Below, piece after piece: positions 4,781 to 64,000 of a DNA stretch of 64,000 nucleotides (position 1 is the stretch's first letter; every line of letters starts with the position of its first letter). The stretch is taken from assembly GCA_905178155.1 (NCBI GenBank), contig CAJINV010000026.1, forward strand, positions 204,289 to 268,288, read 5' to 3'. The notes under the pieces are model-generated. The model was not told the origin of the DNA, searched no databases, and saw only the letters and a program-made list of their open reading frames with translations. The stretch is from Amoebophrya sp. A120. Lineage: Eukaryota > Protista > Dinoflagellata. Both the position numbers and the translations under genes were made by a program.

Positions 4781-5763
4781 CTACAGCTGCTGCAGTTCGT
4801 GAAAGTGCTTGACCTTCATGCTGGTAATCCCGCTGTTCGCACTCTGGATGCCCATGTGCCCCCGGTAATCGTTCTGCTGGTTGGTCACAAACGGCCGCCG
4901 CGCCGGCTGGTCAAAAGCCAGGGAGTATGAAATGCAAAAGTGTCTGGGTCTGGAATGTTGCCGGGTTTGTCATGCTGATCTGGCATGGCCCTTAAATCTG
5001 TATTGCGTGGCCACAAACAGCCTCTCTAGCCTGTCATGCAAAAACGCAGTTTCTCATGCGGAATACGCAGCACAGAAGCACGAAGCAACTTGTCATGCTT
5101 GGCGGCGCATTGCAGTGCGTTTGTTATTGTTATTGACTGGCTTGCATCACAAGTTTCCAGACCCGGACATTTTTGCAATCCATAGGGAGGAATCGGAACG
5201 CTTTTGGATCTTCGGGTCTTCCTGCTTCAGCTTGGAACGCGGGGCGTTGGGGCGGTAGACAGAGAGTGGCTTCTTCGCCGTGGCCGCGCCCGCGGATGTC
5301 TTCGTCACATTCGCGACGGAGTAGACCTGCGAAGTTGTATATGGAGGCGTTATTTTTGTTGGGCGTTGTGCAATACAAACTTAAAAACAAAAAGTAGATT
5401 CACAATCACATGTACTACTGCTGTAAATTAATAAGATGGATCACGCTAACACGCATAAAAGTTCTGGCAGTCTAGTAAGAATTCACGCTGCTGAGACCGC
5501 GTTTAAAGGAGTGCAAGAAAAAATTTTGTCATGCGAAAGTTCAATCCAGTAGATACCTGATTGTGCGTGGTCCGGTCGTCAAATTTGGCTTTTGGCGGTT
5601 GCCACTTCGGACACGGGAACGGCACCGCAAGCAGCTGCGCCTGCCCCACCTGCACAATTTTGCGGCAGGTGTACACCTTTTCCTGGTCAAACACCACCGG
5701 CTCCATGATGTCGCGCTTCTTCGGCGCCGGAGTGGTTTTGGCTTTGGGAGCTGCCGCCGTCAT
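4781..5763 (-). CDS. Small hypothetical protein (~162 aa), one GT-AG intron plus one introner
   Basis: Splicing 5327-5556 (GT-AG) and 4926-5184+DR gives MTAAAPKAK...VPFPCPKWQPPKAKFDDRTTHNQ|VYSVANV...KPLSVYRPNAPRSKLKQEDPKIQKRSDSSLAFDQPARRPFVTNQQNDY...HELQQL*; 489 nt = 163 codons. Confidence 0.6.
4926..5184. mobile_element. Introner family A
   Basis: Family A TIR; DR GGGAG/GGGAG. Confidence 0.9.
5327..5556 (-). other. Canonical GT-AG intron
   Basis: CAG|GTATC...TCGCAG|GTCTA restores the frame; contains GCATGACA on the sense strand. Confidence 0.6.
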
Positions 5764-6495: not shown

Positions 6496-9400
6496 CTAAC
6501 CTTTCTCTTCCTCGTTCAACGGCAGCGGCTTCTGCGTCTCATCATCCGATCCGGTTATTTCTCGTTCCCCTTTCCCCCCGCCGTCTATGTGTATTCCTTT
6601 GCTTTTTCTCTGTTTCTCCTCAGTTACTCCAGGAGTGCCAACATCCGTTCTTATCGCAGTCTTTGAGGCTTTCACATCCACAACAACAGCTGACTTCGTC
6701 ACGGTCTTAGCATTTCCGCCAGCACTGCCCCCGTCGGAAGTAGTACCCTCAACCGGCTTTGCATTTTTGTTGCTCCCTAATAGAACGGTTACAAGCAGCA
6801 CAATCACCGCAATGGCAGAGATTCCGCCGAGAATGACCGCCGCGTACCAAAAAATGACCAACCCTTCATAGTTCTCTTCGTAAATACCGCCACCAATCAC
6901 GCAGTTTACCATTCCGACTATCAAAACAGACAAACCCACGTATCGGTGGAAGTTCAGCCAGACATTGTGTCCGGGCTCAGGCTTGGTTCGAAAAATCCAC
7001 ATAAGCAGCTGCGCCAAAGCGGTTGTTACGATCAAAACCCCGGTCCAGCCGTGGAGCTGTTTTATCGAAGACGATTCGCTAGAGATCTTCCACTCGTTTT
7101 TCGACAAGACGAGGAACATCCCGATCAGCGTGAAAACGATCAGCGCGCTTTGTCCAATCTTTATGGATGTGTCAGAGTTGAAATCGACAAAGTTGAAATA
7201 ATTTGTCATGCATAAAAGGGACGCCAGTTGGAACCCAGTTTCTAAGTGGTGCATGACAAATTTTGGTGGTCCCTAAATCCAGTTTGTCATGCTGTTTAGG
7301 CAAAGAAGAGTGATTTTCTCATGCTACTTTAGCAGCTCGAGCTGTAGCCCCCAACAGGCTTACAATTGGCCTCACTTGCCTGCTCTGCAACACACGTGCC
7401 TCGGGTCATGCATTTTATGCATTACAAATTATTTCAACTTTGACGATTTCAAACCTGACGCTTCCATAATTTTTTAAATACGATTGTGACGTTTTTAAAT
7501 ACGATACCGACCCTTCGTAGTTCTGTTCGTAAATACCGCCACCAATCTATCAAATGTAAAAATGTCTGGGTCTGGAAGATTGCAACTTGTCATGCTGTTT
7601 TTGGACTCTAAAAAAAATTGTATTGCATGACCAGCAAAATGGGTACGCTTTTTGCCACTTTTTGCTACACAGACAGGCCATTTCTCATGCGGAAGGTGCA
7701 TCAGGGAGCCCTCTAAAAATCTGCGATGCTAGTTCAAGCATTACAGGCATCAGAAATATGCATTACGGTCATGAGAAATATGCATGACAAGTCTTGCATT
7801 CTTCCAGACCCAGACATTTTTGCATTTCATACAATCACGCAGTTTACCATTCCGACTACCAAAACGGACAAACCCACGTACCGATGGAAGTTCAGCCACA
7901 CATTCTGTCCGGGTTGTTCAGGCTTGGTTCGAAAAATCCACATAAGCAGCTGCGCCAAAGCGGTTGTTACGATCAAAACCCCGGTCCAGCCGTGGAGCTG
8001 TTTTATCGAAGACGATTCGCTAGAGATCTTCCACTCGTTTTTCGACAAGACGAGGAACATCCCGATCAGCGTGAAAACGATCAGCGCGCTTTGTCCAATC
8101 TTTATGGATGTGTCAGAGTTGAAATCGACAAAGTTGAAATAATTTGTCATGCATAAAAGGGACGCCAGTTGGAACCCAGTTTCTAAGTGGTGCATGACAA
8201 ATTTTGGTGGTCCCTAAATCCAGTTTGTCATGCTGTTTAGGCAAAGAAGAGTGATTTTCTCATGCTACTTTAGCAGCTCGAGCTGTAGCCCCCAACAGGC
8301 TTACAATTGGCCTCACTTGCCTGCTCTGCAACACACGTGCCTCGGGTCATGCATTTTATGCATTACAAATTATTTCAACTTTGACGATTTCAAACCTGAC
8401 GCTTCCATAATCTTGTGCGCCAGCATGTAGGTGGTGTTCGGCGCTTCCAAAGTCGCCGATTGTTATCAAATGCAAAAATGTCTGGGTCTGGAAACTTGTG
8501 ATGCAAGTCCGTGAACAATAAGTGCTCTGTAATGCGCCGCCAAGCATGACAAGTTTTTTCGTGCTTCTGTGATGCGTATCTCGCATGAGAAACTGCGCTT
8601 TTGCATGACAGGCAAGAGGACCTCTTGGTGGCCGCGCAATACAGAGTGCAGAGCCATGCCAGACTAGCATGACAATCTTCCAGACCCACACATTTTTGCA
8701 TTTGATAATTGTCCGTTCTTGTTAATACCCATCCGCCGGAGTAAGGCGAGAATCACCATGGTTGGCGCGATCAACACCCAAGCAACCGACATCAACACCG
8801 CGTGCACTAAACGGACCCTTTCGTGCCCCTTATGACCTGCTCAAACGTTACGACCTCTAACGTTACAATACATAGAAGCTGGGATTTGTCTTGCATAATG
8901 AGCATGACAGACTCGCAACCCGCAGCACTTTCTGCAATACGAATTTTGGCAGATTGTCGTGCGGTTTGGGATTCCGGAACTTGTCATGCGCAGTCCTATG
9001 AAACTTGGCCGCTAGATCATGCACTTCTTGCATCACAGATTTCTAGATTCTATTGCAACGCTTGAGATTGTAACCTTTGAGCAGGTCTTCATACCCCTGA
9101 ACGAGCTCTTCTAACGCTTCTTCCTCCGCTAGAGAGTCCTCCAATTTTCGGCCAAAACCAGGCAGCCCTCCGAGGGCGTTGGTCATTATCGTTAAGTTGT
9201 TCGCGAGGGTCTCGTTTATTGTCAGATTTTTCAGACTCATCTGGAGTGCCAAAAATTTCTCCTTCGCTTCCGCAAACGTCTTGGGCCCGCCGTCCGTTAT
9301 CGGGAGAAGTTGCCCACACACGAAAGCTTTACTCGCGTCACCAGGATGGGACGGTGTCCCGTCGCCGCCTAGTTCCGTGCAGGGCGGGTCGGGATCCCCC

Positions 9401-9948
9401 TGTTTCCAGGAGCAGTCCCAATCCCCGAGTTCATCGCCGTTGGTGATGCCATCGTTATCGCTGTCTTTCCTGCACAACTCTTCGCTCCAGCTTCTGTCTC
9501 CGCCCCCTTGCATGTCGAAGTCGATTCCGAAAGCGTTCCGCTCCGGCGCACCGGTGGAAGATACGTGGCCGAGAAACGCAAACTGCTTGACGTTATCAAA
9601 TGCAAAAATGTCTGGGTCTGGAAGATTGTGAGACTTGTCATGCAGGTTTTCCATGAGCTATATCGTCTGGAATGCAGGACCTAGCATGACAGATTCTGTG
9701 AGATCCCTATCATGCCTATCCTGCATGAGAAACTTCCTCTCAACTTGGTCAAAGTGGACAACTTTTGGCATTCATGCAACACAGATTTTTGCACGATCCA
9801 GAATTAGCATTACTTACAAGTTCCATCCTTCCAGACCCAGACATTTTTGCAGTGCATAGACGTGCGGCACTTTTCCTTCGGCCTTGAAGCTAGGGAAGGC
9901 GCGGACCACAGGGTAGTTGCTGGGGAGGAACACCAGGAGAGGGATCAT
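6496..9948 (-). CDS. Membrane protein with N-terminal temptin-like Cys domain and cytochrome b561 (ferric reductase-type) domain (~470 aa)
   Basis: Spliced product has a hydrophobic N-terminus and a temptin-like pattern GHV..G..RNAFGIDF...W...LC..DSDNDGITNGDELGDWDC.W..G...SHPG. It then has TM helices with four heme-ligand-like His (HAVLMSVAW, HKIGQ, HGWTG, HRYVG). 1413 nt = 471 codons if 7162-8409 is removed as one intron. Confidence 0.8.
7162..7468. mobile_element. Introner family E (duplicate of 8103-8409)
   Basis: TIR TATGGA..GTCAG..TTGAAATCG.CAAAGTTGAAATAATTTG; flanks ATCTT/ATTTT. Confidence 0.85.
7548..7831. mobile_element. Introner family A
   Basis: Family A TIR; DR CAATC/CAATC; empty paralogous site at ~6894. 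Confidence 0.92.
8103..8409. mobile_element. Introner family E
   Basis: Family E TIR; DR ATCTT/ATCTT. Confidence 0.9.
8464..8707. mobile_element. Introner family A
   Basis: Family A TIR; DR ATTGT/ATTGT. Confidence 0.9.
8831..9093. mobile_element. Introner family F
   Basis: TIR TATGA..CTGCTCAAA.GTTAC; DR CCCCT/CCCCT. Confidence 0.85.
9594..9858. mobile_element. Introner family A
   Basis: Family A TIR; DR GACGT/GACGT. Confidence 0.9.
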
Positions 9949-47000: not shown

Positions 47001-47129
47001 CCCACGAAGAACGACGTTCATTTTTCTTTCCATCCCGCAGGCTTCCCCATCCGTCCTTTTTTTCTCACAAACTGATCGCCGCGGCTCGAAAAGGCGCTGT
47101 CGCACCGTCCCGCGAAGTGGGTCAAACAT
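41062..47129 (-). CDS. Large low-complexity membrane/surface protein (~1390 aa), 7 introners
   Basis: 4173 nt = 1391 codons after removing 7 elements plus DRs. Hydrophobic LLLFLLLLLPNAFF near the N-terminus, K/E-rich and S/T-rich tracts, and TM helix EFFIVAALLLIVFLLLGFQF that only forms after splicing 42107-42287. Confidence 0.7.
41653..41931. mobile_element. Introner family H
   Basis: TIR TATCCTGAGTAAAAACGT.CCCACACCAGAGT; DR TCGCT/TCGCT. Confidence 0.9.
42107..42287. mobile_element. Introner family G (degenerate)
   Basis: Degenerate TIR; flanks TCAGG/AGCGG; removal joins a TM helix in frame. Confidence 0.65.
43911..44151. mobile_element. Introner family F
   Basis: TIR TATGGG.TTCTCAA..GTTACATTC; DR TCTTC/CCTTC. 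Confidence 0.87.
44482..44803. mobile_element. Introner family C
   Basis: Family C TIR; DR CGTCC/CCTCC. Confidence 0.88.
44865..45171. mobile_element. Introner family E
   Basis: Family E TIR; DR CCCGC/CCCGC. Confidence 0.88.
45367..45634. mobile_element. Introner family A
   Basis: Family A TIR; DR AATCG/ACTCG. Confidence 0.85.
46092..46353. mobile_element. Introner family A
   Basis: Family A TIR; DR GTCAC/GTCAC. Confidence 0.9.
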
Positions 47130-48809
47130 GGTGTGGTGTTAGTTTTTTTCACTTATTTACGGTTGAGTCTTATTGTTTGTAGAGATAATCCTGCAAGAGA
47201 TGCAAGGATTTATTCCCGAAGTGGAAGAAACCTTTTGCCTCTATCAAGCTCGTTCTGCTTTCCGAGCATGCCACTAGCTGTTCTCTCTTGTGGTATTTTT
47301 TCTCCTCTTCCCATGGTGATCAGAATCGACGCATCATCATACATGCAGCAAGTTTCTTGTTTAACCAAATAGAGAAAATTATTCCCAACGAGAGATGAAG
47401 CTGAGGCACTTGTTCCCGCCCGAATCGTGAAGCTACAAATATCGACAATTGTTCGATCACGTCGCTCTGTGCTGGACGATGACCAGCTATTCGCTCTTTT
47501 TCTCTCTCCTCGACTTGTCGTTCTGTATGCGAAGCTTGCGATCGGCTATATTCCAATGACGAGAACCAACAGTTTAGAGCGATCGAACCACGACAACCAT
47601 GTCAGTGACGCTTGTTCTACTCTAGGCTGTTGGCAAAGAATTCAGGAGTATCCATTCAACGATGTATGTCAAACAGTACCAGAAACGTTCCAGGCAGCTT
47701 TATTGTCTCCCTTCAAATTCTTCAACTCTGTCAGCTTTTCGAAAGTCCATAGTACTCACCTGTGCAGATGCATTTGCTGTATCAAATTCAAATCTACGTA
47801 TCGCGTCTAATATCAATCCATCCCAGTCGCCCGGTGTGCTAGTCCACACGGAAATGTTGCCAAAAGCAGAAGGAGCAACAAAGAATGCAGAAGTATTCAG
47901 TATAATCAGAAGTGGTCATGATGACACTGCATGCCCTTTCTTTGAGGGGTTCTTGCGAGGGTAGAACAGTTAGAAGTTGAGCCTGATGAATCTCCTCGTC
48001 TATTGCGTTAGTTCAGTACGGAAATGAAGTAAGTACTTTACTTAAAACCATCACTTTATTTGATAGTGAAATTTTATTGCGCTCCTGTTTGAACTTGAAG
48101 TTGAATTTTGTTGCGTTATCAGCTGCAAGATGGGCAAAAGTTTCTACCAATCCCTAATCCCCACCAGCAGTGGCAAAATTTGTGAAAAGTAGTACAAGGT
48201 GATTCAAGGTGACAATAAATTTGTGAAAATTAGTACCAGCAGTGGCAAAAACAAATGATCCAAGGTGAAAAGTAGTACAAGGATGTTGATGCGCAAGAAG
48301 CCTTTTCAATCCACTACAGCTGCAGAAACTACTTTGCAGCTTGAGTTTCATACGCCGGATAAAGCAAAATATATCAAGTGCTGATCGCGATTCGATTGAG
48401 AGTTCTGTTTTGATATCAAGAAATGCGCAACGTTTGAATCTGACCTGATGTTTGTTGTAGCCTGAAAAAAAAAGAAAGCGCGAAACACGACGGCGCAGCC
48501 ACCATAATTAAGTACAACCCCAGGCCGGTTTCACGAGCTGAGACCTTTGACAGAAAAAGCCAGCAATTTTCGAATGTAGCAATAATCTGAGACTGAGCAC
48601 AGATTATTGCTGGCGAGCCAGCAAAAGTTCTGTCACCTCACGGTCTAAGCTCGCACCATACGACTGAGAAATAAGGTAGATGACGCTTGAATTTTATACA
48701 ATATCTGCATCAGGAAGGAACTGAAACGCAAAGAAAAAAACCGTTGAAAAAAAAACGTCAATGCAGAAAAAAAAATTCTATCCGTTTCTGCACTTCCAGA
48801 CGTCTTTCA

Positions 48810-51800
48810 CTACTTCCCTTCCGCACCCCCGCCCTCCTCCGCAGTTTGCTCTCCACCCTGCGCTGACAGCTGTTGGTCTTTCTGCAAGCACAAAGCCTTT
48901 TCCACTGGGAAGAACGACAGGTTATGAATTGCAAAAGCACCGCACTAGTAGTAAAAATTTTTTGCAGTCACGCATGTACAAATCTTTGTCTTAAGAGGTA
49001 TATCCGCATTACAAGTTTCAACTGTAATGCTGAGGTAATTATTTGTAATGCAATTTATACTAAGTACGATGCTTTTGCAATGCATATAAGTCATCAGTCG
49101 ACAGCATTTTGTACACTGTTTGCTCTGGGCCGGTGAACGTCGTGGGGTCTTTCGAAAGGACGTAGAACAGGAAAAACAAGTAGTCCCACAGATTGTGTTC
49201 GTGTTTGATGTGTTCCTCGAAGGTCTGTGTTTGTGTTGTACTAGAGGAACTCCTCTTGTTGTTTTGCTTGTTACTCGTGATACCACTGTCCACGCTGGAA
49301 GAAGTAGCCTTGGCCTCCTTCATCGCTCGAATTTCCCGGAGTCGATGCTCGATTTCGCCGTGCGAAATGTTGCAGATGAAGCAGTAGTTCTGTAGGTGGT
49401 CCTGTCGGCTGTTCGTTTCGTCGCGCAGAGCGCCAAAAGTGTCGATGATGATACCGAAGATAATGTTCATCAGAACCACTTCGATGATCACGTAGAACAA
49501 CACGTCAAATGCGAAGCGGTTGTGAAACTCGTCGGCATTGGAAATGGGCAGCGTCGGGCCGGGCACCATAATGTATCCAACGAAGAAAGTGTTAAGTACA
49601 GTTACACACTTGTTGTGAATTCCGCAACACAAATTTCCTCTGCATGAGAGAGAAAACTTGCAATGCAGAAAACATATAGGGAAAACACGTATGAAGCAAC
49701 GCTCTTATGCATATCCGGCATGACAAACGTGTCTGTCTTGCATGGCCTGCAACACAATGTGTGACTGTAACACTTACACTTTTTTTCTTGCATATAATGT
49801 CGTAGGTTGTCACGAAAAACCAGGACAGCATCTCCGGCGTATCAACTGCAAAAATCCCTGGATGTCTGGAAGAGTCAAGGCTTGTCATGCACATTTTGCC
49901 TGACCCGTGAGGTCTGTGATGCTGGCGCTAGCATCACTGATTTTTTGAGAGCTTCTTGATGCTAATTACGCATGAGAAATGCAAGCCCTCTCCGCGTGCC
50001 AAGAACTGACTCCTGATGCTGCTCATGCAACACAGATCGTTTTAGAATCCGCAGACAGCATTACAAGTTCCACTCTTCCAGACCCAGGCATATTTGCAAT
50101 CCATACGGCGCGTTGCTGGCCCAATTAGAAGATGACTCGGACCCGGAACTACTTGTCATGCTCGAGCTGCTACCGCCGCCTGTTGTTCCTGCAGTTCCCA
50201 TCAGCTGCCGCGCTGCTGCTGCACTACTATGCGTATATTCATTGTTAACCGTCGCGACAGCGTTGCTTGTCGCTGGCGGAGCAGCCAAAACCGCAGAAGA
50301 ACCCTTCCCACCCGCTACTTGCGGCAACGTCCCTTTGCCGCCGATACTACTCGCCGACGCGGTAGTGGCGGCTGCGCTTCCACTTGAGGTGGTAGCTGTT
50401 CCAAACCCCATCGCCCCGTCTGCGTCCGGAGACGAAATCGAGAACGCGAGATATTCCGTGCCGAACCCCAGCGGACTGTAGGCGGTCAGGGCGAAGGCGT
50501 AGAGCACGATGGCCATCATCAACCCCGTGAACATCAATTGCTTCATGGGGTTTAACACCGCCCGGAACAGGTTCCGCATCACCTCGTGCGTGAAAAACAC
50601 GTCGAAGAGCATGAAGGCGTAGTAGTGCAGCCCCCTTTGCGGATCGTTCTATCGCAAGAAAAAATTGTTTCACTGTGAACTTGTAATGCAGAAAATTAAA
50701 GACGGAACTATTTGTCTTGCTAGACCACCTGCAAGACATTGGATTTTCAAGCATCTCCCTTGGCAAGCGCGCATGACAAATTTTTAGCGTCATGTGCAAC
50801 AAACTTGTGATGCAGATCTTGCAAAATCATCACAATGAAACAGCTTTTTCATGGGACACGTTCGTGGTCAGCGCCAATATTGACAGAATGAACAACACCA
50901 GCGCCCGCAACAGCGGTTCCTGCTTCGTTATCGTGATCAGGGACTTGACAAAAATCTTCGGAGAGTTGGTCGCGAACGTGCCGGACTTTTTCTTCTCACT
51001 CAGCTCCTATGAAAGTGCACAACTCCCCCTCCCCCTCATTTGTATTGCATGAACAGCATTACAAGCGTCAACAAGGATACAGGTTTTGCATGACAAATTT
51101 GGACAGGAGTGTAGTGCCATTTGAATTGCCAGAACTTGTCATGCAGACAGTGCCAAGAGGCAAGGCGTTAATTAGCTATTTTGCATGATAAATGAGGGGG
51201 AGGGGAAGTTGTGTATTGTCATACCTCCCAGTAGTTCGCGAGAAGCGCCAAGAAAATCGCGAGAAAGGCGAACGTGATGGCGTGCGAGCCGACCAAGTTG
51301 TTTCCGACCAGAATTGCGAGGATGATGGCCGAAAGGATTTGAAAAATAGAGTGGAAAAACTTGCCATAAGAGATTCCGGCCGTCATTGAATTTTGCTTTC
51401 TTCTGGACGAGGCAGAAGCAACTCCTGAGTTTGTCTCTTCGCACCACTTCTCCGTCTCCTCGTCGAACGCAATCGGAAAGTACAGCATCGCCCGAATAGA
51501 CAGTCGCATGCCGGCGATCAAAAGACTCAGGAACCCGAGGTCCCGGACGATTTTATCCGGAAAAAGCGTCACCTCGAAGGGCTCGGACTCAAATGCGCTG
51601 TAGTGGTGGTAGTGGTTATCGCAAGAAAAAAGTGTTACAGTTACACATTGTCATGCAAGACTAGCAACAGAGACAACCTTTCTCATGCAGGAAATGCTTC
51701 GAAGCCTCGTTTCCTTCCTGTTTTCCCTTATGATCTTCGCATTACAAGTTTTCTCTGCCACACAGAGAAAATTTGTGATGCAGAAACTCCAACAAATGTG

Positions 51801-54800
51801 TAACTGTAACACTTTTTTCTCGTGATAGTGGTGCTCAGCCCCCGAACCAAAAAAAAGCGACCCGAAAAACCCGGTGTTTTCTGCGTACGCTTCTTCTTTC
51901 TCGCTCAACCTCGGTTCCGCGCGCACGAAGGACTTCGGGAAGAGAAGGGAAAAGAAGTTATCCACAATCACACCCGGTTATGCATTGCAAATGTATGATC
52001 TGGGTCTGGAGACGTGTGATGCTAATTTAGGATTTGTGGGGAAACTGCATTAGGAAGCCACGCGTGACAAGGTTCTGGGCTCCTTCGTGTTTCGCTTTCC
52101 GCATGACAAACTACATTTTTGTCTGACAGGCAAGAGGTTCTTTTCCTGCTCACGCATTACAGATTCAAGATTCATGTGAGACAAGCATGACAAACTTGCA
52201 CTCTTCCAGACCCAGACATATTTGCAATGCATATCGGTAAGTGAAACTGGTACGTCACTGGTGCGTTGCTGTATCCTCTTGTCCGGTTTAACGTGCAGAT
52301 CAAAACTAAGTTGATCACTAACGCGATCATCAAGCTCAGCCAGATCAGGAATTGCAGATTTTTCTGTTCGTTCCGGAAGAAGAAGTGTAACGGGTGGAAG
52401 TGTAAAAAATCCGCCGGCAATGACATCACCGGTAGGGGAATGTCCACCTTCAACGTCGAAAGCGACTGGGTAGCCTGGCATTCCCGCAGCACCCGTTTTC
52501 CGAAGTCGCACAGAAATTGCAGCTTCGTCTGCGGGTTCGTCACTGGGACGGAAGTGAGGAGCTCTCTCTTCGTAGATTGCAACGCGTACTTGCAAGCAAG
52601 GGGCTTGACGAAGAAGAGCCGGGAAATTTTGTTGTCCGCGTTTGAGAGACACACTTCGACTCCCGCGGTGAGGGAGAAGAAAAAATCATACGCCGTGTCG
52701 TAAAGCAAATCTATCGCGGTCGAAGAGGTGATTGCGGTTCCAGTTGCACCAGGAATAACCTCGTTGTCGCTACTAGTAGTTGAGGTCCCCGTTGGCGCCA
52801 CCGCGGCTAAGAAGTGTTCCGTCATCGGCTCTCGGTGGGATCCATCATGCAATGCAAATATCACTGCGTCTGGAGACTTGTGTTGCTGACACTGGCGTTG
52901 CAGATTGACTACTTGTAGAGCATAACAGCATGAGAAGTTTATATTTTTCGTAGATTGTTGTAATTGCGCAGTCATTGTCTTCATTCAGGAAACGCACGAG
53001 AAACTGACTTCTTGCAGCACGACAACAAATTGGCCCATCGTTTTCATGCATGACAGATCTTCCTGTCCTCTAGCTCTGGCATGACAAATCCAGATCCAGC
53101 AATATTTGCGATGCATATCCGATTCCAATGTACGTATTGGCGATCAGGTCCATGTATCAACTGTAAAAATGTCTGGGTCTGGAAGATCGCGAGATTTGTC
53201 ATGCTTGTCTGGCATGACCAAAAAGTTTGTGATGCGTGCCCAAGACGAGACCCTTTTGCCTGTCATGCAAAGGCGAGGTTTGTCATGCGAAAAACGCAAC
53301 CCAAAGAAGCGCAGATATTTCTCATGCTGCCTGTGCATTACAGAGCATTCACTATTCCCAACGCAGCATTACAAGTTTCCAGACCCAGACATTTTTGCAG
53401 TTGATACCATGTTCCGGAGCAAAATCACCAAGTCCAATATTGTGAGGAAAACTCCCCCCCCATATCAGAAAGGAAATCTGTGATGCTGTATTTGCATACA
53501 CAAGCCGCGTTGTAGTGCTAGAAGGCCAAGAGACGCAGTTGCGGCCTCGCTTGCAGGTAGTCTGTTATGCTGTTTTGCGCTTCCAGTTGCTCCCTGTCAT
53601 GCTGAAGATGCAAGGGCTTCCAACCCCAGCCAGTACCACAGTCCGCATCTCTTCGGTTCTAGCATGGCAACGTGATTTGTCATCACAAACTATGCTACAC
53701 AAATCCCCGTTTTGACATAGGGAGGGGAGATTTTTCATTTTGCTATCCAACGCCTCGCCAATGGACGTGCGCAGATCGTCATCGGAGGAGAAGGAGAGCT
53801 CCCCGTATATACATTGCAAATATGTCTGGGTCTGGATGAAACTTGTCATGCTAATGTTCGAATGAAACGGACACTGTATGGCGGAGCCGCGCATGACAGG
53901 TTTCTGGGTAGCAGCTACGTCTAGCGTTAATCGCATGACAAATGTCCTTTTTGCATGGCAAACACGTGGCGCTGTAGCGCAACAAACATGACAGACTTTT
54001 GTGCATTGCCGGCCGAGCATGACAAGTTTGCATTGTTCCAGACCCAGACATTTTCGCAGTTGATACAGTAGGCTTTCTTGCACTTCTCCACCTTCCACTT
54101 AACCAAGTCCAGGAGCTCTTCCTGGGTAGAAGTGGACGATGAAGAAGAGGATGCAACGCTGCTCGCGCTACTTGCCATGCTGACCTGCAACAGGTCTTCC
54201 AGCAAATTTCCGTCGTAGTCGCAGTTTTCTTGCAGAAATTTCACGTAGTGAAAGAAGATCCGCTTTTTCACCGTGATCGGATCCATATCAAATGCAAAAG
54301 TGTCTGGGTCTGGAACAAAGCAACTTGTCATGCCAAATCTAAATCATGTAAAAATCTGTGTTGCGTGATTACCCAAAGCTGTCTACTTTTGATCTAATCG
54401 AGAGGCAGTTTCTCATGCAGGATAAGCATGATAGAACTCTCACAGAGTCTGTCATGCTATGTCCTACATACCAGACCTCATCGGTCATGGAAAACCCGCA
54501 TGACAAACCTGGCAATCTTTCAGACCCAGACATTTTTGCAGTTGATAATCCAACCGGATCGCCAAGATCCGGACGGACACCGCGTCCGTCCGGATTTCTA
54601 TATCAAATGTAAAAATGTCTGGGTCTGGAAGATTCTAAACTTGTGATGCTGTCTCTGCATTCTAAAAAAATCTGTACTGCATGATCAGCAAGAGGGGTCC
54701 AGTTTGTGCTACATGGAGAGGGCATCTCTCATGCGGGATAGGCATCAGAAAGCCCACTAAAAATCTGTGATGCCAGGTCATCCATTACAGGCGTCCCGGG

Positions 54801-57800
54801 TCATGTAAAATCTGCATGACAAGTGTGGCATTCTTCCAGACCCAGACACTTTTGCGTTTGATAATCTAGCAGCGCGTTTAGAAGGGTCGCTGCGGACTGC
54901 TTGAGCATCAAAACGATCTCCGCTTCCGGTAATGGGCTGTCAACAGTGTATCAAAGTGAAAAAAGCCCCCACCCCATACTCAAAAGAGAACCTGCGTTGC
55001 CGGATTTGTGTACACAAACGCAAGCCGTATAGCAAGAAGAGGCAATCCACCGCGCCCCGACCTGTCCCGAGCCTGAAGAATGAAGAAGAGGCAATCCGGC
55101 GCGCCCCGAACCGCCCCGAACCTGAAGAAGAGACAAGCCGGCGCGCCCCGAACCGCCCGGAACCTGGAGAGGAGGCAATCCGACGCGCCCCGAACCGCCA
55201 CGAACCTGGAGCAGAGGCAATCCGGCGCGCCCCGAACCGCCCCGAACCTCAAGCAGTGGCAATCTGGCGCGCCCCGCACCGCCCCGAACCTCAAGAAGAG
55301 GCAAGCCGGCGCGCCCCGAACTCAGACAAGCGCGAAGCCGGGCCGCCCCGAACTGCCTCGAACCTGAAGAAGAGGCAAGCCGGCGCGCCGCGCCCGTGCG
55401 CGCGTGCCAACTAAAAAAGACACGCACACCATAGCCGCTGGCGTCCTCGATTTCGTGCGCGCGCGCATAAAAGACTGGCTGCACACTCCGCCGCATGGGT
55501 ACCGTTTGCCTTTTACGCAAGACAGAGCTGATTTGTGGTCACAACTCATTTGTGGTCACAAATCAGCATCACAAAATTCTTTTCGATATGGGGAGGGGAG
55601 ATTTTTCCTCACAATACAGTGTCTTGGATTTCAGGCAGGATTGAGCAGGTGAAAAGGTCGGATTTTGTTATCGCCGCGACCAGTTGCATTGTAGATGCCC
55701 CCTCCGCATCGTCCTCTTCGTTAATATTTGTCGTGTTTCTTTTCTTCTTCTTACTCGAAGTTGCAAACTTTCCAGCACTTCCGTCGTAGTAAAAATCCTG
55801 CCCTTCTTTCTCCTCCTTGCTCACGACGTCTAAAAACGTGAACCGCGAGTTCAAAATTCGGTCCAAAGTTTCTACCAACCCGCCGTGGAACAGGATCTGC
55901 TCCTGATTCGCCGAACACGGGCCCTGGGACAGCTCGACGAGGAAGTCCAAGGACTGCTGCAGGTTCTGCGCGGTTAGGACGTCCATCAAATAGATTTCCA
56001 CGTTTGCGGAGGTGGTTGCTTTCTTCTTCCCAGATGTTCCACTAGAAGTTGTTGTACCTGGATTATTGTTCCCTGCACCCCCCACGCCGTGCCCGACCAT
56101 TTTGCACACCAAATCGCAGCAGGTCTGGATGATTGGAATCGACTCACTGTTGTCCGCCTGCTCCCGGAGGTATTCCTGCATCCAGGAGTTGTGCCCTTCG
56201 CATAACAACTGCAAAAACCGCTGGCACTTGATCAACAACTCCATTGCTTGGTTGATGGTGTAGATGAAGGTTTTGTCGCCGATGCGCAACGTCTCCATCG
56301 TCTCTAATTCGTTGAACAACCGTTGTTTGATCAACTTAAACTCCTTATCCAATGCAAAAATGTCTGGGTCTGGAAGAATGCAACTTGTAATGCTAGCTCT
56401 CCATACCTAGGAAATCTGTATTGCATAGCCAACAAAAGTCGCAGCCTCTTTTGGATACGCAAAAACGCAGTTGCTCATGCGGCTTTCCTATGCGAAAGCG
56501 TTCTGAAAAGTTGTCATGCTGTGTTGCATTCGGAACCGTTTCCATCATCCACATTTTAGCATCACAAGCTTCCAGACCCAGACATGTTTGCAATCCATAC
56601 TCCTTCAACCGATGCAAAACCCGGTTGAAAATCCGGTGCATGTTATCGTACGAAAAGACTGTCTCAATCTCAAATCTTTGCAGACTCAGCAATACAAATT
56701 TGCTCAGCATGACAAGGAAAACCTGTGCTGCGCAATATGCAAAAGAAAACACGTAGAGAGTGCCCTTTTCTTGCATGTCGAGCATGACAAAAAAACTGTC
56801 TCAAGGAATTTCCGCATTACAAATTGAGACTAAGACACTTTTTCCTTGCGATACATGTTGCGGAAAAAGACCACATCGTCGGAGGATTCAAAGTACTCCT
56901 GAAACCCGTTCTGCACGGCTCTATTCCCTCCGTCTAGTAAAGCGATGGAAAGCTGCAGAGCGTTCAAATACACGTCATACGGTTATGACATTACACAACT
57001 CCCCCTCCCCCTCATTTGTCATGCAAAACGCCAAATCCACGCCTTGCTGTTTGGCACCAAATGCATGACCACACGTTCGCGATGCCCAAACCGCATTACA
57101 GTCCGTACGCTGATTTGTCATGCGACAGCCACATTTGTGCCATTGATTGTGATGCCGGTTATGGTACACACACGAGGGGGAGGGGGAGTTGTGCATTCTC
57201 ATAACGGTGCGTGGGAATCGAGAACCGAGGCGGCGAATTTCACGCCGTTTTGCTGGAGAATTTCGTTTTGCCTCGCCGCGTTCGGTTCTGCCGGGTTGGA
57301 GTCGGTGCTGGTGCTATCGCCACCTGCTTGCTCTACACCGTCTGTACCACTCCCGTCAGAGTCCGTCAGCCACTTATCAGAAGGAAAAATCCACCCTCCC
57401 CATATTGAAAACGCATCCGTCTGTGAATTTGTAATGCAGATTTGTGGCTACGAATCCTGTCCGTCTTGCAAGAAGGCAAGCCCAGAGAGTCCGCCGCATT
57501 ATGCGGGCGGTTTGTGATGCTGTTGGGCTTACAGCATCAACCTCTGTCATGCTAGTCGCCTACGTCGAAACCTCTCGACTCAGGCTCGGCATATGCCTGC
57601 AGTCCTCTCCAGCACGACAGACCTTATTTGCGTACGCAAATCCAGCATCAGAAACTTCGTTTCGATATGGGGAGGGGGGATTTTTCTCTTTGATACCACT
57701 GGGTTGTCAACTTCAACACCTCATCCACCAATTCCCACCGGCATAACTGTATCGCAAGAAAAAACTGTTTCACTGTGAACTTGTGATGCAGAAAGTAGAT

Positions 57801-60800
57801 CGCAGAACTGTGTGTCATGCTACACATGCAAGACGATGGATTTCTAGCTGTGTTTTCCCTTACGATCCCCGCATGACAGATTTTTAGTGTCATGCGTAAC
57901 AAACTTGTGATGCAGATTTCGCACAACCACCACAGTGAAACAGTTTTTTCGTGGGATAAACTGGACATTAGAAATGCTGTGGGTGATCAGAGTCCCCAAA
58001 TACTTCTCGTAGTCGTAGCTGCTGGACCCACTCGCCTGTATAGCCCGCTGGACCGCTTCGTGGGCTTTGATTTCCGCGATAAACGCTATAAACGTGCACA
58101 ACCCCCCCTCCCCCTCATTTGGATGGCATCCGTAGCAACACAAGTCCTGGCACAGATGCAGCTTTTGCATGACAAACTTGCGACTGCTTGTACGTAGTGC
58201 TGTTTCGGCTTCGGGAATCTGTCATGCAAGCAATGCCACAGGGCAAAGGGTGGATTTGGTATTTTGCATGACAAATGAGGGGAAGGGGGAGTTGTGCACT
58301 GTCATAAATGCGCGAAACTTTGTCGTCATCAGAGTGGACTGCTCAACCACCGACGGCTGTGCTCCTGCATCAGCCGATAAGCCGGAATTATCTGCGCCAC
58401 CTTGTCCGTCCTGTTGTTCCCCGATGCTCTGCAGCGTTGCGGTTTCCAACAACGCCTGCAGCTGCAACACCTTCGCACTGAAGTCCGTGACCGACGCGGC
58501 GGCCTGCGCGACAATCTTCTCTTCTGTCGTTGTTTTCGACAAAGCGAGGCTTTATCAAATGCGAAAGCGTCTGGGTCTGGAAGATTGCCACGTTTGTCAT
58601 GCATATTTTGAATGACCCATGATGTCTGTGATGCATGCTCTAGCATGGCAGATTTTCAGAGGGCTTTGTGATGCTTCAACCGCATGAGAAATGCCCTCCC
58701 CGTGTAGCGCAAACTGAACTCCCTTTGCTAGTCATGCAATACAAATTTTTTTGGAACCCAAAGACAGCATCACAAGTTGCAACCTTCCAGACCCACACAT
58801 TTTTACAGTTGATAGGTTTATATCGCGAAAGGATTGCACCGACGCCACCGCCCGCTGCTCCAGGATTTGCCGTATGAATTGCAAAAGTGTCTGGGTCTGG
58901 AAACTTGTGATGCTGAGTGGCGTATCATGAGGAGGCCACAAGTGCTCGCTCAGCATGACAAGTTTCTGAGCTTCTAGGTGTTGCCTATTCTGCATGACAA
59001 ACTGCGTTTCTGCATGACATAGAAATGGCGCTCTTGGGTAACGTGCATGACAGATTTGAGCCTCATGCCAGACAAGCATGACAAACATGCACTCTTCCAG
59101 ACCCAGACGTTTTTACATTTGATATGCCGGTAGAAAACCGATTGCTCCACTTGGCGCGACCGCTTGGCCGGTTTGGTGGTTGATGGACCTCCCAAGTTGT
59201 TTATCTGCGCAAGAGCCGCCGGTTGAGATAAATTGCCGGCACTTCCTGCTACCATCAGCCCCAGCTCTTGTTCCAAACCGTCCTCGTCTGCCGGGTGTAA
59301 AATGGTCAACACATTCTGGATCTCCAACACAGTGGAATACACCTCCGGAAACTCCTGTTTCAGAACCGACGCCACTTTGTTCTTCACAGACAGTTGATAT
59401 CCTCCAGCCCTACTATCAAAAGGAAAAATCCCCCCTCCCCATTTATCAAAACGGAAATCTGTGATGCGGGACTCGTATACACAAATCAAATCTGTCTTGC
59501 AGTAGATGACTGCACGCAGATCGCTAGGCTAGGAAGGGGCCGCTCGGTGTAGGCGCCTAGCATAGCAGACGTCTGCCCTGTAGGCCTTAGAGCATGACAA
59601 ATCTCGCGCATAACGCGGCGGCCTCTCTGCGTTTGCCTTCCTGCAAGACAGACAGGATTTGTGGTCACAAATCTGCATCACAAATTTTCAGACGGATACG
59701 TTTTTAATATGGGGACGGGGGATTTTTCCTTGCAATATCTACTTCCGCCACCTGTAGTCCCACCTTTCCGCCCAACCACGTCCATGAAGGGTTTGATTAG
59801 GTGAAAGCAGATTTTCTGCACCGGGAGTTCGAAAACCGATCCGCGAAGTAGTTTTCCACTATTCAAATCCACCGCGTACTTGTTTTTCCGGTAGATGTAC
59901 TCGAGAAATGTGTTCAAAAAGGAAAAACACTGCGCAAAGTACTCCTTCGCCTGAAATGACAACTCCAGCTTCGCGGCCGGCTGCAGCCTCTGCTCCAATT
60001 TCGTCATGGTGATCCGAACCTGCTCGGGGATCGCCGTGCACGGCATCCGCTCGTTGTTCGCTAGATTGATGGTTTTGCTATCAATGAAGTCGGAGACTGT
60101 GGTGTCTAAGTACACCAAAAACTCCTCCAAATCCCGAATAACGTAGTCGACTACCGCGAAAATCAAATTCGTGTTCTCCTTCTCGGAAGCAGTACTTCTA
60201 CCTTGAGGGTCTTGTGTCGTGGAGGAAGCGTCTTTATTCATCCCGGTCGCCGAAGATGTTGTTGATGAGCTACTTTTCGCGTTCAACAACGTCTCATCGT
60301 CCCGGACTTCGCAGTCGTAGTACGCTTGCTGGAGGCAATACAGCTGAGTCTGTTTCAGCTCCAAGCAAATCGGAATCACCGGCGACGCAGGATCCTCTTC
60401 GACTGTGGAAAACAGAAACTGGGACAAGCACACGAAGTCCAACAAAATCACGTTCGCAGGAAGCAACGCGTGGACCAGAGTTTCGTGCAGGGAGTCTCTG
60501 CCCAGGGAGAGCTTCCCGATCAGTTTCAAAAACTCGAGGTAGTACAGAATCCGTGTCGTCGCGGCTGCACTGTTGTTCGTCGAGTTACCACCTCCGGAAG
60601 ATGTAGGTGATTGTTGCAGCATCAGCGACCGTTGCACCATTCCCACCCCAGCGGCGGCAGCGTTCGTTCCTTGTGCCTGTTGTAACGTCTGACCGTTCAC
60701 AAAAGCCAAAACGTCGTCCTGGATTTGCAACACTCTGTCGGTGTTCGCCTGCTTCTTCCCGTAGACCTCTGGTAACAGCGCAGAAGTGTTTGTCATTGTT

Positions 60801-63800
60801 GTTTTTGAAGAAGTTGCACTACTCCCAGAAGTACTAGATGTTGGCGGTATCTCCGCCCGTAGTAGATCCAACAGAACCCTTTTCGCCAGCGGCAAGGGCG
60901 CGTCGTGCACCACCACCATGTTCTGTAACACCTTCAGCCCGATGAAATTCCGGCGTTTCTTGCACGACAGTTCCAATAACGGCGACATTAAAGATTCAAA
61001 CGTCTTCGCCCCGCTGGTCGCTAGTTGTGACGCAATCTGCTCGTTATTCGAAAACATCTGCTCTAAAACAAACTCGACAGAGCAAGAATCCGGCACTGCT
61101 ATCTGCGATGTTAATTCATCTAAAAACTCGAACAGCTCGAGTTGGTTCGCCGTGTGTTTCCTGACCGATTGCGCGAGTAACTGGCAAGCCAACGTCGTGA
61201 TGGAATTCGCGGCAAGCACGGCGGTGGTTGGAAAAGTCCCATATAAAATGCAAATATCATGTCTGGGTCTGGAAACCTGTGATGCTAAAATGTGGATGAC
61301 GGAACTACTTCCGAATGCAGCCCAGCATGAGAACATTCTAGAGCGCTTTCTCATACGCAATCCACATCAGAAACTGCCTTTTTGCATGACACAGTGGCTG
61401 CGACCTTATTTGTTGGCTCTGCAATACAGATTTTGCAGGAATGTAAAGCTAGCATTACAAGTTCCACTTTTCTAGACCCAGACGTGTTTGCATTTGATAT
61501 CCCCGACGTGTTGACCACCGCTTGCTGCTGTTCTAACAGCCAGTTGATGAGAATTCTCCGAAGGCCCAACGCGTATGACAGTGCACAGCTCCCCCTCCCC
61601 CTTATTTGTATAGCATGAACGGCAATACAAGCATCAGCAAGAGTGCTGCTTTTGCATGACAAATTTACACTGGGGCGTAGTGCTATTTGGGCCAATAGAA
61701 TTTGTCATGCAAGCAGTGCCATGATGCAGTGACTGGGTTCGGGGTTTTGCATGACAAATGAAGGGGAGGGGTAGTTGTGCACTTTCATAACGCGCGGAAA
61801 ATATCCTGGAACGGCGCGTCGGGCTCACTGCTGTCGCAGATCTTCTGTAAGTTCTGCTTGCTAGAAGCGCCACCAGCTCCCTGTAGAATATCAACCGTCG
61901 CTTCTGCGACGGTGGCTCCTCTACCACGCTTCACCACGCGACCGTATTCATCGATAAAAAGCGTCAAACTGCAAAGTTGCCTATCAACTGCAAATATGTC
62001 TGGGGCTGGAAACTTGTGATGCTGGGTGGCATATCATGAGGAGGCCGCAAGTGCTGTCTCCGCATGACAAGTTTCTGCGCTTCTAGGTGTTGCCTATTCT
62101 GCATGACAAACTGCGTTTTTGCACGACAGAGAGTGGGGCTCTTGGGTAACGTGCATGACAGATTTAAGACTCATGCAAGACAAGCATGACAAATATGCAT
62201 TCTTCCAGACCCAGACTACATTTTTGCATTTGATATTGCCGCAAGTCCGTTAATATCGTTGCCGTCCTTGCAAATGCCTTCTTGCTGTCGATCGCCAACG
62301 CCCACTTCTCAAACCCGGAGAGGTAGGCTTGGAGTTCCTGTGTTTGTTGCTTGATCTGTTCGAACAGGTGCCCGTCGGACTGGAGGTAGAGGAGTTGTAA
62401 ATCATTCTCCGCGGTGGTTAAACAGGTTTCTAATCTCGTCGTGTATTGGAAGAGCAGCGTCATACACGCGTTGGGCAACGTGTTTATTGTTTCTGCCGAT
62501 GAGCCAGCACCAGATCCGGCACTTCTACCTGTAGACGACAATGATGATGATGACGCCGCCACAGAAAACAACTCCAGAATTCTCGTCGCAAAGTCCGCAC
62601 CTTTGAACCGTGCGAAATCGACGTCGAAGCCCAGAAATTCCTCCTCAAACTGCGAAAAATCTCTTAACACCTCCACGGCGATTTTTGTCGTTAATATCGA
62701 TTTCTGCAGCTCCGTGTCCGTGCAGCAGGGAGAAATCATGTTCGATCTTTTCCCCCCTTCGCCGACGAAGAGAAATTGACTCGGTTGGGATTCATCCACC
62801 ACACAGTAGTACTTCAGGAAAATCTGGACCAAGCGGGTAACCACGGAATCCACAGCCAGATTGTGGATCACGTCCAGACAATGCAGCGCGGCGGACTTGA
62901 CATTATCGTGGTTGTTGGTGGTCGCTGCGGAAGTGGTCGCTTCATCTAAACTTTGACCGCCGCGGCCCAGGGCTTGCGACTGACGTTCTGGTTCGTTTCC
63001 AGTACCCCCATCGCGGTCGACAAGCTGCAGGAGCAGAGTTTTGTAGTCCATCACCTGCTTCTCATTTGTGTAAAATCCGTACTGGAGGAGGAGGCTAAGC
63101 TGCTTCAAGTATTCTACGGTTAGCAGGTTATTCTGGTACGCATCAGTTGTATTAGCGCCCGGTAGAAGTTCCGCAGCAGTCGCGGATGTTGTTGTCGCGC
63201 TGTTCCTGATCAAATGCCGGCGGATGCACTTTTCCAGCAACTTGAACTTGTTCGTTCCGACGGCAGTTGATGTTTGTTGCTGTCCAGATGTGGAGGAAAA
63301 CCCGTCCGGAAACAGCGCCTTCAAGTTTTCACTTTCACTCGTTACCGCTTTGGGCAAGAGAAAATTGCTACTCTCCGGTGTAGTTGAATTTTTCCCGGCT
63401 GATGTTGTTTCGTCGTTAAACAACGTTACCATCTCGACATCCTCTTGCTCCTCTAATAGCGGTTGATACGCTTTTATCCAAGAAAAAAACTGTGTTAGTG
63501 TAACTATCTTTGGCTGACAGCATTACAAATTTGCTATACATGACAGAGAAAACCTGTCATGCGTGGCTTGTAAGGGAAAACACACATGAAAAGAGAACTT
63601 CATGGCTGTCTCGCATGACAGGTGTAAGTCTGTTGCATGTTCTGCATTACAGATTTACACTTACACAGTTTTTTTCTTGCATAGCTTTACTCTTAAAAGA
63701 CGCTTTCAAAGAACTCCCGATGAATCCTCTAGGAGAGGAAAGTTGCGCCATTTCCCCCGCGGCATAGCAATTCGTCGTGTCACAAATCGCATTGCAAACT

Positions 63801-64000
63801 CCAGATTTGTTCGAATTCGGTAGTTGCGGGAACTTCTGCGAGTCTAACACCCGAACTTCCACCGGCGGTTCTAAATTCACGTGCAACAAATGGTCCACGA
63901 ACATGTTCGTCAAGAGCCGGCAAATCGCTGCTTGAAACGACTTCGGAAACGCGAGATAGTTACTGGTGGAAGAACTATTATTTCCAGCAAGACTCATTAA
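48810..64000 (-). CDS. ITPR: Inositol 1,4,5-trisphosphate/ryanodine receptor-family Ca2+-release channel, 5'-partial (2674 codons in window), 27 introners
   Basis: RIH-associated motif RFLQLLCEGHNSWMQEYLREQ and LDFLVELSQGPCSANQ; S6 FDVLFYVIIEVVLMNIIFGIIIDTFGALRDE; CFICNI; FEEHIKHEHNLWDYLFFLFYV..KDPTTFTGPEQ.V; DLSFFP..KALCL. 15191 nt minus 27 elements and DRs = 8022 nt, in frame to the window edge. Confidence 0.9.
48923..49086. mobile_element. Introner family G
   Basis: TIR TATG.ATTGCAAAAGCA.CG.ACT; DR CAGGT/TAAGT; restores DLSFFP. Confidence 0.85.
49574..49794. mobile_element. Introner family B
   Basis: Family B TIR; DR TAATG/TAATG. Confidence 0.87.
49840..50105. mobile_element. Introner family A
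   Basis: Family A TIR; DR CGGCG/CGGCG. Confidence 0.87.
50650..50858. mobile_element. Introner family B
   Basis: Family B TIR; DR CGTTC/CGTTC. Confidence 0.85.
51008..51223. mobile_element. Introner family D
   Basis: TIR TATGA.A.T.CACAACT.CCCCTCCCCCTCATTT; DR GCTCC/CCTCC. Confidence 0.88.
51617..51827. mobile_element. Introner family B
   Basis: Family B TIR; DR GTGGT/GTGGT. Confidence 0.9.
51979..52233. mobile_element. Introner family A
   Basis: Family A TIR; DR CCGGT/TCGGT. Confidence 0.88.
52846..53117. mobile_element. Introner family A variant (degenerate)
   Basis: TIR ATGCA..GCAAATAT..CTG..TCTGGA; DR TCCAT/TCCGA. Confidence 0.75.
53155..53406. mobile_element. Introner family A
   Basis: Family A TIR; DR CCATG/CCATG. 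Confidence 0.9.
53438..53745. mobile_element. Introner family C
   Basis: Family C TIR; DR TCCAA/TCCAA. Confidence 0.85.
53808..54065. mobile_element. Introner family A
   Basis: Family A TIR; DR CCGTA/CAGTA. Confidence 0.87.
54286..54547. mobile_element. Introner family A
   Basis: Family A TIR; DR ATCCA/ATCCA. Confidence 0.9.
54601..54863. mobile_element. Introner family A
   Basis: Family A TIR; DR TTCTA/ATCTA. Confidence 0.88.
54949..55616. mobile_element. Introner family C expanded by an internal minisatellite
   Basis: Family C TIR; DR CAGTG/CAGTG; 668 bp versus ~305-324 bp for other members. Confidence 0.87.
55035..55392. repeat. 42-bp GC-rich minisatellite (~8 copies) inside an introner
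   Basis: Unit ~GAACCTGAAGAAGAGGCAATCCGGCGCGCCCCGAACCGCCCC. Confidence 0.88.
56346..56599. mobile_element. Introner family A
   Basis: Family A TIR; DR CTCCT/CTCCT. Confidence 0.9.
56644..56853. mobile_element. Introner family B-like subfamily
   Basis: TIR TATCG.A.GAAAA....TGTCT...TCTCAA; DR CATGT/CATGT. Confidence 0.83.
56984..57203. mobile_element. Introner family D
   Basis: Family D TIR; DR ACGGT/ACGGT. Confidence 0.9.
57375..57695. mobile_element. Introner family C
   Basis: Family C TIR; DR CCACT/CCACT. Confidence 0.9.
57750..57958. mobile_element. Introner family B
   Basis: Family B TIR; DR AACTG/AACTG. Confidence 0.9.
58087..58306. mobile_element. Introner family D
   Basis: Family D TIR; DR AACGC/AATGC. 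Confidence 0.88.
58553..58814. mobile_element. Introner family A
   Basis: Family A TIR; DR GGCTT/GGTTT. Confidence 0.88.
58873..59124. mobile_element. Introner family A
   Basis: Family A TIR; DR TGCCG/TGCCG. Confidence 0.9.
59414..59737. mobile_element. Introner family C
   Basis: Family C TIR; DR CCTAC/TCTAC. Confidence 0.88.
61242..61499. mobile_element. Introner family A
   Basis: Family A TIR; DR TCCCA/TCCCC. Confidence 0.87.
61574..61789. mobile_element. Introner family D
   Basis: Family D TIR; DR ACGCG/ACGCG. Confidence 0.9.
61982..62235. mobile_element. Introner family A
   Basis: Family A TIR; DR TTGCC/TTGCC. Confidence 0.9.
63475..63683. mobile_element. Introner family B
   Basis: Family B TIR; DR GCTTT/GCTTT. 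Confidence 0.9.

Follow-up and report, generated by a model that had tools for sequence, protein, structure and literature searches.

Removal of inverted-repeat introners from both orientations in an IP3R-like gene of Amoebophrya sp. A120, and a candidate cut rule set by their ends

How can an intron-forming element be removed from a transcript in both orientations, when the donor, branch-point and acceptor signals of the spliceosome are strand-specific? This question is raised by a stretch of 64,000 nucleotides (nt) from the dinoflagellate Amoebophrya sp. A120 (GCA_905178155.1, contig CAJINV010000026.1, positions 204,289 to 268,288 of the forward strand; hereafter the window), in which an inositol trisphosphate receptor (IP3R)-like gene on the minus strand is interrupted by introners. 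A first-pass annotation made from the letters had proposed that the same introner stands in both orientations in this gene (53155-53406 and 58873-59124), and that symmetric features would guide either RNA splicing or excision at the DNA level. It is highly probable that the elements are removed from RNA, with the cuts defined by the element ends and independently of orientation. Removal of each element plus 5 nt, 27 times on the minus strand, gives a single frame of 2,673 amino acids (aa) from 64000 to 48813; the frame opens without any ordinary GT-AG intron, and every intron of the gene within the window (27/27) is an introner. The frame alone would also allow 2 or 8 extra nt per element, and is broken by 3, 4 or 6. 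Four of the six exon frames scanned singly with Pfam carry the families RIH_assoc, RYDR_ITPR or Ion_trans (RIH_assoc, E 3e-22; RYDR_ITPR, E 1.5e-5; Ion_trans, weak).

The elements were collected by a de novo scan of the window for TAT...ATA inverted-repeat elements, and the candidates were then curated. They are about 160-320 nt long, with one of 668 nt, start with TAT, end with ATA, and have imperfect inverted ends of 25-45 nt and a 5-nt direct repeat at both flanks. Seven candidates were discarded (four that are arms within real elements, two weak ones, and 12094-12246, which may be real), and two elements were excluded from the counts: 7162, a copy made by tandem duplication, and 24272-24544, a TAT...ATA element whose flanks are inverted instead of direct repeats and which has no 5-nt target-site duplication (TSD). 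Another inverted-repeat element, 27736-27932, has neither TAT/ATA ends nor a clear TSD and is possibly a decayed introner. In the curated set of 54, the TSD is perfect in 38 and has one or two mismatches in 16; each position of TAT is kept at both ends in 52-54 elements, and A at positions 11-12 in 43-48. With terminal inverted repeats (TIRs), a TSD of fixed length, no coding capacity and insertion in either orientation, the elements have the properties of miniature inverted-repeat transposable elements (MITEs), and it is very likely that these MITE-like introners are identical with those published for A120. The passages on introners in Farhat et al. (2021; PMC7789003) describe a TAT-starting inverted repeat, seven looser bases, a run of A, direct repeats of 3-5 nt, a length of about 240 nt, non-canonical ends and a proposed hairpin. 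The window elements likewise show the TAT-starting repeat, seven looser bases with at least three A and a border repeat within 3-5 nt, and they form repeated intron families without GT/AG that are skipped in contigs of runs guessed to be RNA.

Signed clustering of the window elements gave eight multi-member families with no inconsistent edges. Three pairs named by the first-pass annotation were aligned globally on opposite and same strands, with 45 nt trimmed from each end and 200 shuffles. The pair 53155/58873 scored +100 on the opposite strand and -28 on the same strand (66% identity; best shuffle -8), 4926/8464 scored +189 and -7 (78%; best shuffle -7), and 9594/54286 scored +205 and -35 (80%; best shuffle +5). 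The interiors are not self-palindromic (each against its own reverse complement, -42 to +20). The pairs are indeed opposite-strand relatives with exact coordinates; they are diverged members of a family (66-80%), however, and not identical copies of the same introner. Closer opposite pairs occur within the IP3R-like gene, namely 54601/58553 (78%), 54601/49840 (73%) and 57375/59414. The assignment of the host genes to the minus strand was borne out by a strand caller, which placed 50 of 56 window candidates on minus and none on plus, with six left without a call.

One pattern scan of metagenome contigs yielded 148 loci (L001-L148) of a related strain, about 90% identical to window 46822-48671 at L009 and with elements up to 94% identical. 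This strain, from a metagenome-collection assembly, carries the same element families at similar density. Its loci hold 311 distinct elements, 180 of them with a confident host strand, which together with the 54 of the window give 234 elements, 192 assignable to the eight families. Tabulated over these 192, both orientations with respect to the host gene are represented in all eight families, without significant bias (smallest p = 0.096). Retention would shift the reading frame for 144 of the 234. No orthologous element site shared by the window and the related-strain loci was found, and the viral contigs searched gave no match. At positions 4-8 of the ends, a few variants, among them TATC-AAAT, TATG-CATT, TATG-GATT and TATC-AACT, recur at either end in families 0 and 1; they pair poorly within one copy, as if copies had exchanged ends.

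Contigs of four runs guessed to be RNA (X1-X4; two samples from one study) were placed on 49400-59800, where 15 of 22 joints are listed. At all 15 the element plus 5 nt is skipped exactly, and neither orientation is left unspliced among them, in agreement with the first-pass claim that both need the same removal. Thirteen of the listed joints lie on one 4,704-nt contig of X1, which bridges opposite members of family 0 (53155 against 51979 and 53808), family 1 (54286 and 54601 against 49840) and family 2 (49574 against 50650 and 51617); two contigs bridge family 4 in its two orientations. The joint over 53155-53406 is listed. That over 58873-59124 is not among the 15, and removal of this element therefore rests on the reading frame, 252 + 5 not being a multiple of 3. 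The 668-nt element at 54949-55616, with family-3-like ends and a GC-rich 42-nt array of about six copies, is still skipped exactly. A raw-read RNA run, X9, gave nine reads only, on an element with other flanks, and is uninformative for the IP3R-like gene.

An alternative is that the elements are excised from DNA, like ciliate internal eliminated sequences, in a transcribed copy of the genome. Their resemblance to MITEs with TSDs would suit such a process, and the RNA status of X1-X4 is a guess. Nevertheless, run X5, which is DNA-like (flat depth of 43-48 in unique bins; 713 joints), argues against it: X5 contigs with a depth of 35-46 pass from exon into or through elements without difference, for instance 52209-53179, which holds 52846-53117 whole, and no empty-site joint is found among the 15 listed of the 713. 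We know of no split between germline and soma in Amoebophrya. In addition, the register and end variants described below are linked to the sense strand, which fits RNA, and 66,565 introns of A120 are reported as supported by RNA-seq against genomic assemblies (PMC7789003). Excision from DNA, the second option of the first-pass annotation, is thus very unlikely rather than excluded, because contigs drop rare variants and the X5 joints seen are 15 of 713.

Since the flanks are duplicated, the length of the skip leaves its exact placement to be read at imperfect TSDs, where the differing copies show which base the contig kept. The register is taken as the number of intron bases before the element, so that register 1 leaves 1 nt before and 4 nt after. 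The register is at least 1 at 51008, 51979 and 54601 and, by a piece end, at 59414. It is at most 1 at 53808 and at most 3 at 52846, while piece ends limit it to at most 2 at 58087 and at 58553 (the latter on three letters only). The ranges of the 15 joints intersect at 1 only, and three piece ends agree. Assuming a single register for all elements, we infer one common register, with a transcript intron of the form N-TAT...ATA-NNNN set by the direction of transcription. A stop-codon test had eight candidates, one of them informative: L056:532 of the related strain has an in-frame stop at register 4. On the assumption that the intronic TSD copy drifts to A/T, mismatch polarity (GC-up/AT-down) was 20:12 at positions 1-4 against 1:8 at position 5 (p = 0.009; p = 0.028 for the related strain by itself). 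In Table S4 of PMC7789003, the nine end pairs that are commonest in A120 all begin with NT, and they occur in 38 of 234 elements at register 1 against at most 18 at other registers; this support is weak, because where the pairs are placed varies with the aligner, and eight of them have AN at the end, a feature not predicted by register 1. Two further TSD patterns were dropped, namely an excess of mismatches beside the 5' end (7/19 in the window, 5/36 in the related strain) and a preference for G at position 4 (27/54 in the window, fading to 58/180).

It may also be asked whether removal from RNA keeps the right length while the register varies or flips with element orientation (1 versus 4), since the duplicated bases make most outcomes identical. 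Farhat et al. called the borders of A120 introners variable or unknown (Fig. 3 legend, PMC7789003), and orientation + of families 0 and 1 has a lower bound only (at least 1, element 54601). However, the four upper bounds (1, 2, 2 and 3) are joined by no lower bound above 1, the stop in L056:532 falls at register 4, and end variants follow transcription within families 2, 3 and 6. A variable or flipping register is accordingly considered improbable.

The ends themselves follow no GT/AG rule, in keeping with the first-pass annotation: GT or GC with AG is present in 20 of 234 elements in any of six equivalent placements, and the full GT..AG of a canonical U2-type intron in 11 of 234 at register 1. 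In the transcript, the first T of the 5' end varies in none of the 234 and the third base in seven, while at the 3' end the last base varies six times and the third-last A once. This strand asymmetry has p = 0.005 in the 234 and p = 0.048 in the related strain alone. At register 1, the least variable bases relative to transcription are the 5' U(+2) and A(-7), the latter kept in 233 of 234, or 282 of 284 with an extra set, in a context that is not strand-specific. Within families 2, 3 and 6 the end variants go with transcription instead of with the orientation of the element, and in families 2 and 6 the 5' third-base variant is present in both orientations. Among 81 weakly oriented elements, four variants fit this rule and none breaks it. 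AG at -2/-1 was seen in 26 of 234 against a background of 7% (p = 0.03, one of several tests, uncorrected).

The reading that we favour, with a probability of roughly one half, is RNA splicing defined by the element ends and performed by a relaxed U2-type spliceosome without U1. Such a spliceosome would depend solely on the sequence that the inverted ends present whichever way the element lies. Instead of U(+2) of a donor it would use the U of the 5' UAU; the branch adenosine, at a constant distance from the 3' cut, would be the A that opens the 3' AUA (position -7), and the duplex of the termini would join both ends in place of U1. Insertion would then be harmless in either direction, so that elements could spread through coding sequence. 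Short fixed distances from branch to acceptor occur in some protists and yeasts. A spliceosome is favoured because U(+2) and a fixed-distance adenosine are the remnants expected of a donor and a branch point, because AG is slightly enriched, because nearly all spliceosomal proteins as well as U2, U4, U5 and U6, but not U1, were found in A120 (Farhat et al., PMC7789003), and because Fritillaria offers a precedent. The supposition that strand-specific spliceosomal signals are excluded is not supported, since turning an inverted repeat around leaves the sequence of its 5' and 3' ends unchanged, as a result of which independence of orientation is expected; moreover, two-way introners with near-canonical sites have been published. 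Recognition by symmetric features, as first proposed, stands insofar as the inverted ends must provide, in either orientation, whatever is recognised, whereas the lopsided cut (1 before, 4 after) and the difference between 5' and 3' end variants depart from symmetry.

Several points weigh against this reading. The RNA status of X1-X4 is a software guess, and all four come from one study. The end rule was spotted first in the window, for which it is post hoc (window alone, p = 0.33); among 50 elements oriented by locus only, two variants break it and one fits (pooled p = 0.015). L001:2873 and L053:1398 have G at -7 within coding frames, and L001:1359 starts with CAT in an unclear context. G is not enriched at +1 (79/234, p = 0.32) nor favoured at +5 of the 5' end, and the bases flanking the putative branch A show no difference between the two ends. 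The tight upper bound of 1 on the register depends on a single element (53808), and the TSD polarity is absent in the 50 and 81 less certain elements (3:4, 0:0 and 3:4, 1:2). Finally, predicted folds show the element ends paired, and they would then be out of reach of small nuclear RNAs.

In predicted folds the arms pair in 12 of 12 folded elements, in both orientations, over 19-26 of 26 nt, and the terminal triplet is 97% paired across all families, which makes structure-guided recognition possible. A non-spliceosomal or second machinery could act at the RNA level on a paired terminal triplet with fixed spacers, as for the nonconventional introns of euglenids, and would leave a full-length circle as product. 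The absence of a GT/AG rule suits it, as do the arms that pair both ways, the fact that U1 was not found in A120 (PMC7789003), and an equally lopsided Euglena code with 3 nt before and 5-6 nt after the paired triplet (PMC12501133). Nevertheless, positions 4-7 are only 44-74% paired, and G-U is not favoured over A-C in sense-strand stems (190 versus 179 at positions 4-28, p = 0.6). The variants of the third pair run opposite to a pure pairing model, which tolerates A>G wobble but not U>C; they favour C-A mismatches over wobble. Purines at the downstream exon start show no significant preference (142/234 against a background of 55%, p = 0.10), unlike in Euglena. A euglenid-like machinery is the main rival, though we consider it somewhat less likely than the spliceosome. 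Matching between arms within a copy exceeded shuffles in some families only, may reflect subfamily structure, and was not used.

The elements can be compared with several known systems. For A120 introners, the inverted repeat, direct repeats, size and ends are the same as in the published description; the borders given there as variable or unknown are here an exact +5 at one register in both orientations. In work on Polarella glacialis and Aureococcus (bioRxiv 2020.10.14.339549), introner-like element classes 1, 2, 3, 6, 7, 8 and 10 of the former and the introner elements of the latter are introns in either orientation. They too are two-way introners from TIR DNA transposons with TSDs, but they take GT/GC/GA and AG from the element end or TSD and show an orientation bias, whereas here neither are these dinucleotides needed nor is a bias significant. 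The Euglena code is given as 5'-N3-CDG...CHG-N5-6 followed by a purine (PMC12501133), and the products of euglenid nonconventional introns are circular (review PMC11282704). Their likeness lies in the lack of GT-AG, a paired terminal triplet, fixed lopsided spacers, TSD-like repeats and a machinery described as unknown (PMC12501133; PMC11282704). They differ in CAG/CTG, spacers of 3 and 5-6 and a purine exon start, compared with TAT/ATA, inferred spacers of 1 and 4 and no significant purine preference here; the CDG/CHG triplet with spacers of 3 and 5-6 nt is not found in the window elements. Fritillaria has TIR/TSD introns whose ends are non-canonical and which its own spliceosome removes (review PMC11282704). 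The introns of F. borealis are likewise MITE-derived, with TIR, TSD and non-GT/AG ends, and an adapted U2 spliceosome acts there; they have the end pairs AG-AC and AG-AT and a conserved U1 (PMC11282704; PMC13326754), while the ends here are free save U(+2) and U1 was not found.

Since 2021 the elements have been known, along with their non-canonical ends and the idea of a hairpin (PMC7789003). The portions of that text considered here, figures 3, 4 and S19-S25 aside, speak of orientation for genes only and do not deal with how the elements lie with respect to the host gene. The literature search met no mention of orientation, of a fixed register or of a branch position where Amoebophrya introners are concerned, although figures S19-S25 in PMC7789003 and supplements to introner surveys may bear on orientation. 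What was not found in print is the candidate cut rule, fixed and testable, with its two least variable bases; independence of orientation by itself would be anticipated for inverted-repeat elements. About 60% of the introns of Amoebophrya are removed without GT-AG and, it seems, with no U1, and the way in which this happens has been a puzzle since 2021. A fixed register and two strand-specific bases make the splicing mechanism testable on existing RNA-seq; the rule would explain the flooding of coding sequence with introners (27 in one gene) and would allow annotation of the borders not settled in published work. Tentatively, tens of thousands of A120 introns might obey a code N-UAU...AUA-NNNN, with an invariant U(+2), an A seven bases before the 3' cut, and a duplex replacing U1 and AG. 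Any transposon of this kind would, wherever and whichever way it inserts, be a perfect intron from the start, and the geometry would have converged on that of euglenid nonconventional introns. The features are collected in Table 1.

Table 1. IP3R-like gene and introners of the window. Skip, length in nt passed over by contigs; frame, reading frame; register, intron bases before the element.
Feature	Position	Strand	Remarks
IP3R-like host gene, 5' part beyond window edge	48813..64000	-	2,673-aa frame after removal of 27 introners
Short introner, last intron of the gene	48923..49086	-	frame, TSD
Introner, family 2, orientation +	49574..49794	-	skip 226
Introner, family 1, orientation -	49840..50105	-	73% to 54601 reversed; skip 271 in X1-X4
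Introner, family 2, orientation -, 5' end TGT	50650..50858	-	skip 214
Introner, family 4, orientation +, GT..AG at inferred register	51008..51223	-	register at least 1; skip 221
Introner, family 2, orientation -	51617..51827	-	skip 216
Introner, family 0, orientation - (opposite to 53155)	51979..52233	-	imperfect TSD, register at least 1; skip 260 in X1-X4
Diverged introner, 3' end ATG	52846..53117	-	register at most 3; skip 277; whole element inside X5 contig
Introner, family 0, orientation +	53155..53406	-	TSD CATGG (sense); inferred intron 53151-53407 (GT..TG); skip 257 in X1, X2, X4
Introner, family 3, orientation -, 5' end TAG	53438..53745	-	skip 313
Introner, family 0, orientation -	53808..54065	-	imperfect TSD, register at most 1; skip 263 in X1, X2, X3
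Introner, family 1, orientation +	54286..54547	-	skip 267 in X1
Introner, family 1, orientation +	54601..54863	-	imperfect TSD, register at least 1; skip 268 in X1
668-nt introner, internal 42-nt tandem array	54949..55616	-	skip 673 in X1
Introner, family 0, orientation +	56346..56599	-	frame, TSD
Introner, family 2, orientation +	56644..56853	-	frame, TSD
Introner, family 4, orientation -	56984..57203	-	skip 225
Introner, family 3, orientation -	57375..57695	-	skip 326
Introner, family 2, orientation -	57750..57958	-	frame, TSD
Introner, family 4, orientation +	58087..58306	-	register at most 2 from piece end
Introner, family 1, orientation -	58553..58814	-	78% to 54601 reversed; register at most 2, contig end only (piece stops 58549, 3 letters)
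Introner, family 0, orientation -	58873..59124	-	TSD CGGCA; inferred intron 58869-59125 (AT..GC); removal inferred from frame
Introner, family 3, orientation +	59414..59737	-	register at least 1 from piece end (59409)
Introner, family 0, orientation -	61242..61499	-	frame, TSD
Introner, family 4, orientation +	61574..61789	-	frame, TSD
Introner, family 0, orientation -	61982..62235	-	frame, TSD
Introner, family 2, orientation +	63475..63683	-	frame, TSD
Introner, family 0, orientation + (other gene)	4926..5184	-	alignment, TSD
Introner, family 0, orientation - (other gene)	8464..8707	-	alignment, frame opening, TSD
Introner, family 1, orientation - (other gene)	9594..9858	-	alignment, frame opening, TSD

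Elsewhere in the window, a tandem duplication at 6977-8417 (spacing 941 nt, 497 of the first 500 bases identical) has copied an introner (7162-7468 and 8103-8409) together with part of a membrane-protein gene, and a 277-nt tandem repeat occupies 34923-36745 in 6.6 copies with 94% matches. A low-complexity frame of 1,203 aa on the minus strand (42105-47138) is open once five introners are removed. In the related strain, L053:1-4800 holds a plus-strand gene split by at least nine introners, whose fragments, judged by eye, resemble what we take to be a nucleoside diphosphate (NDP)-sugar dehydratase.

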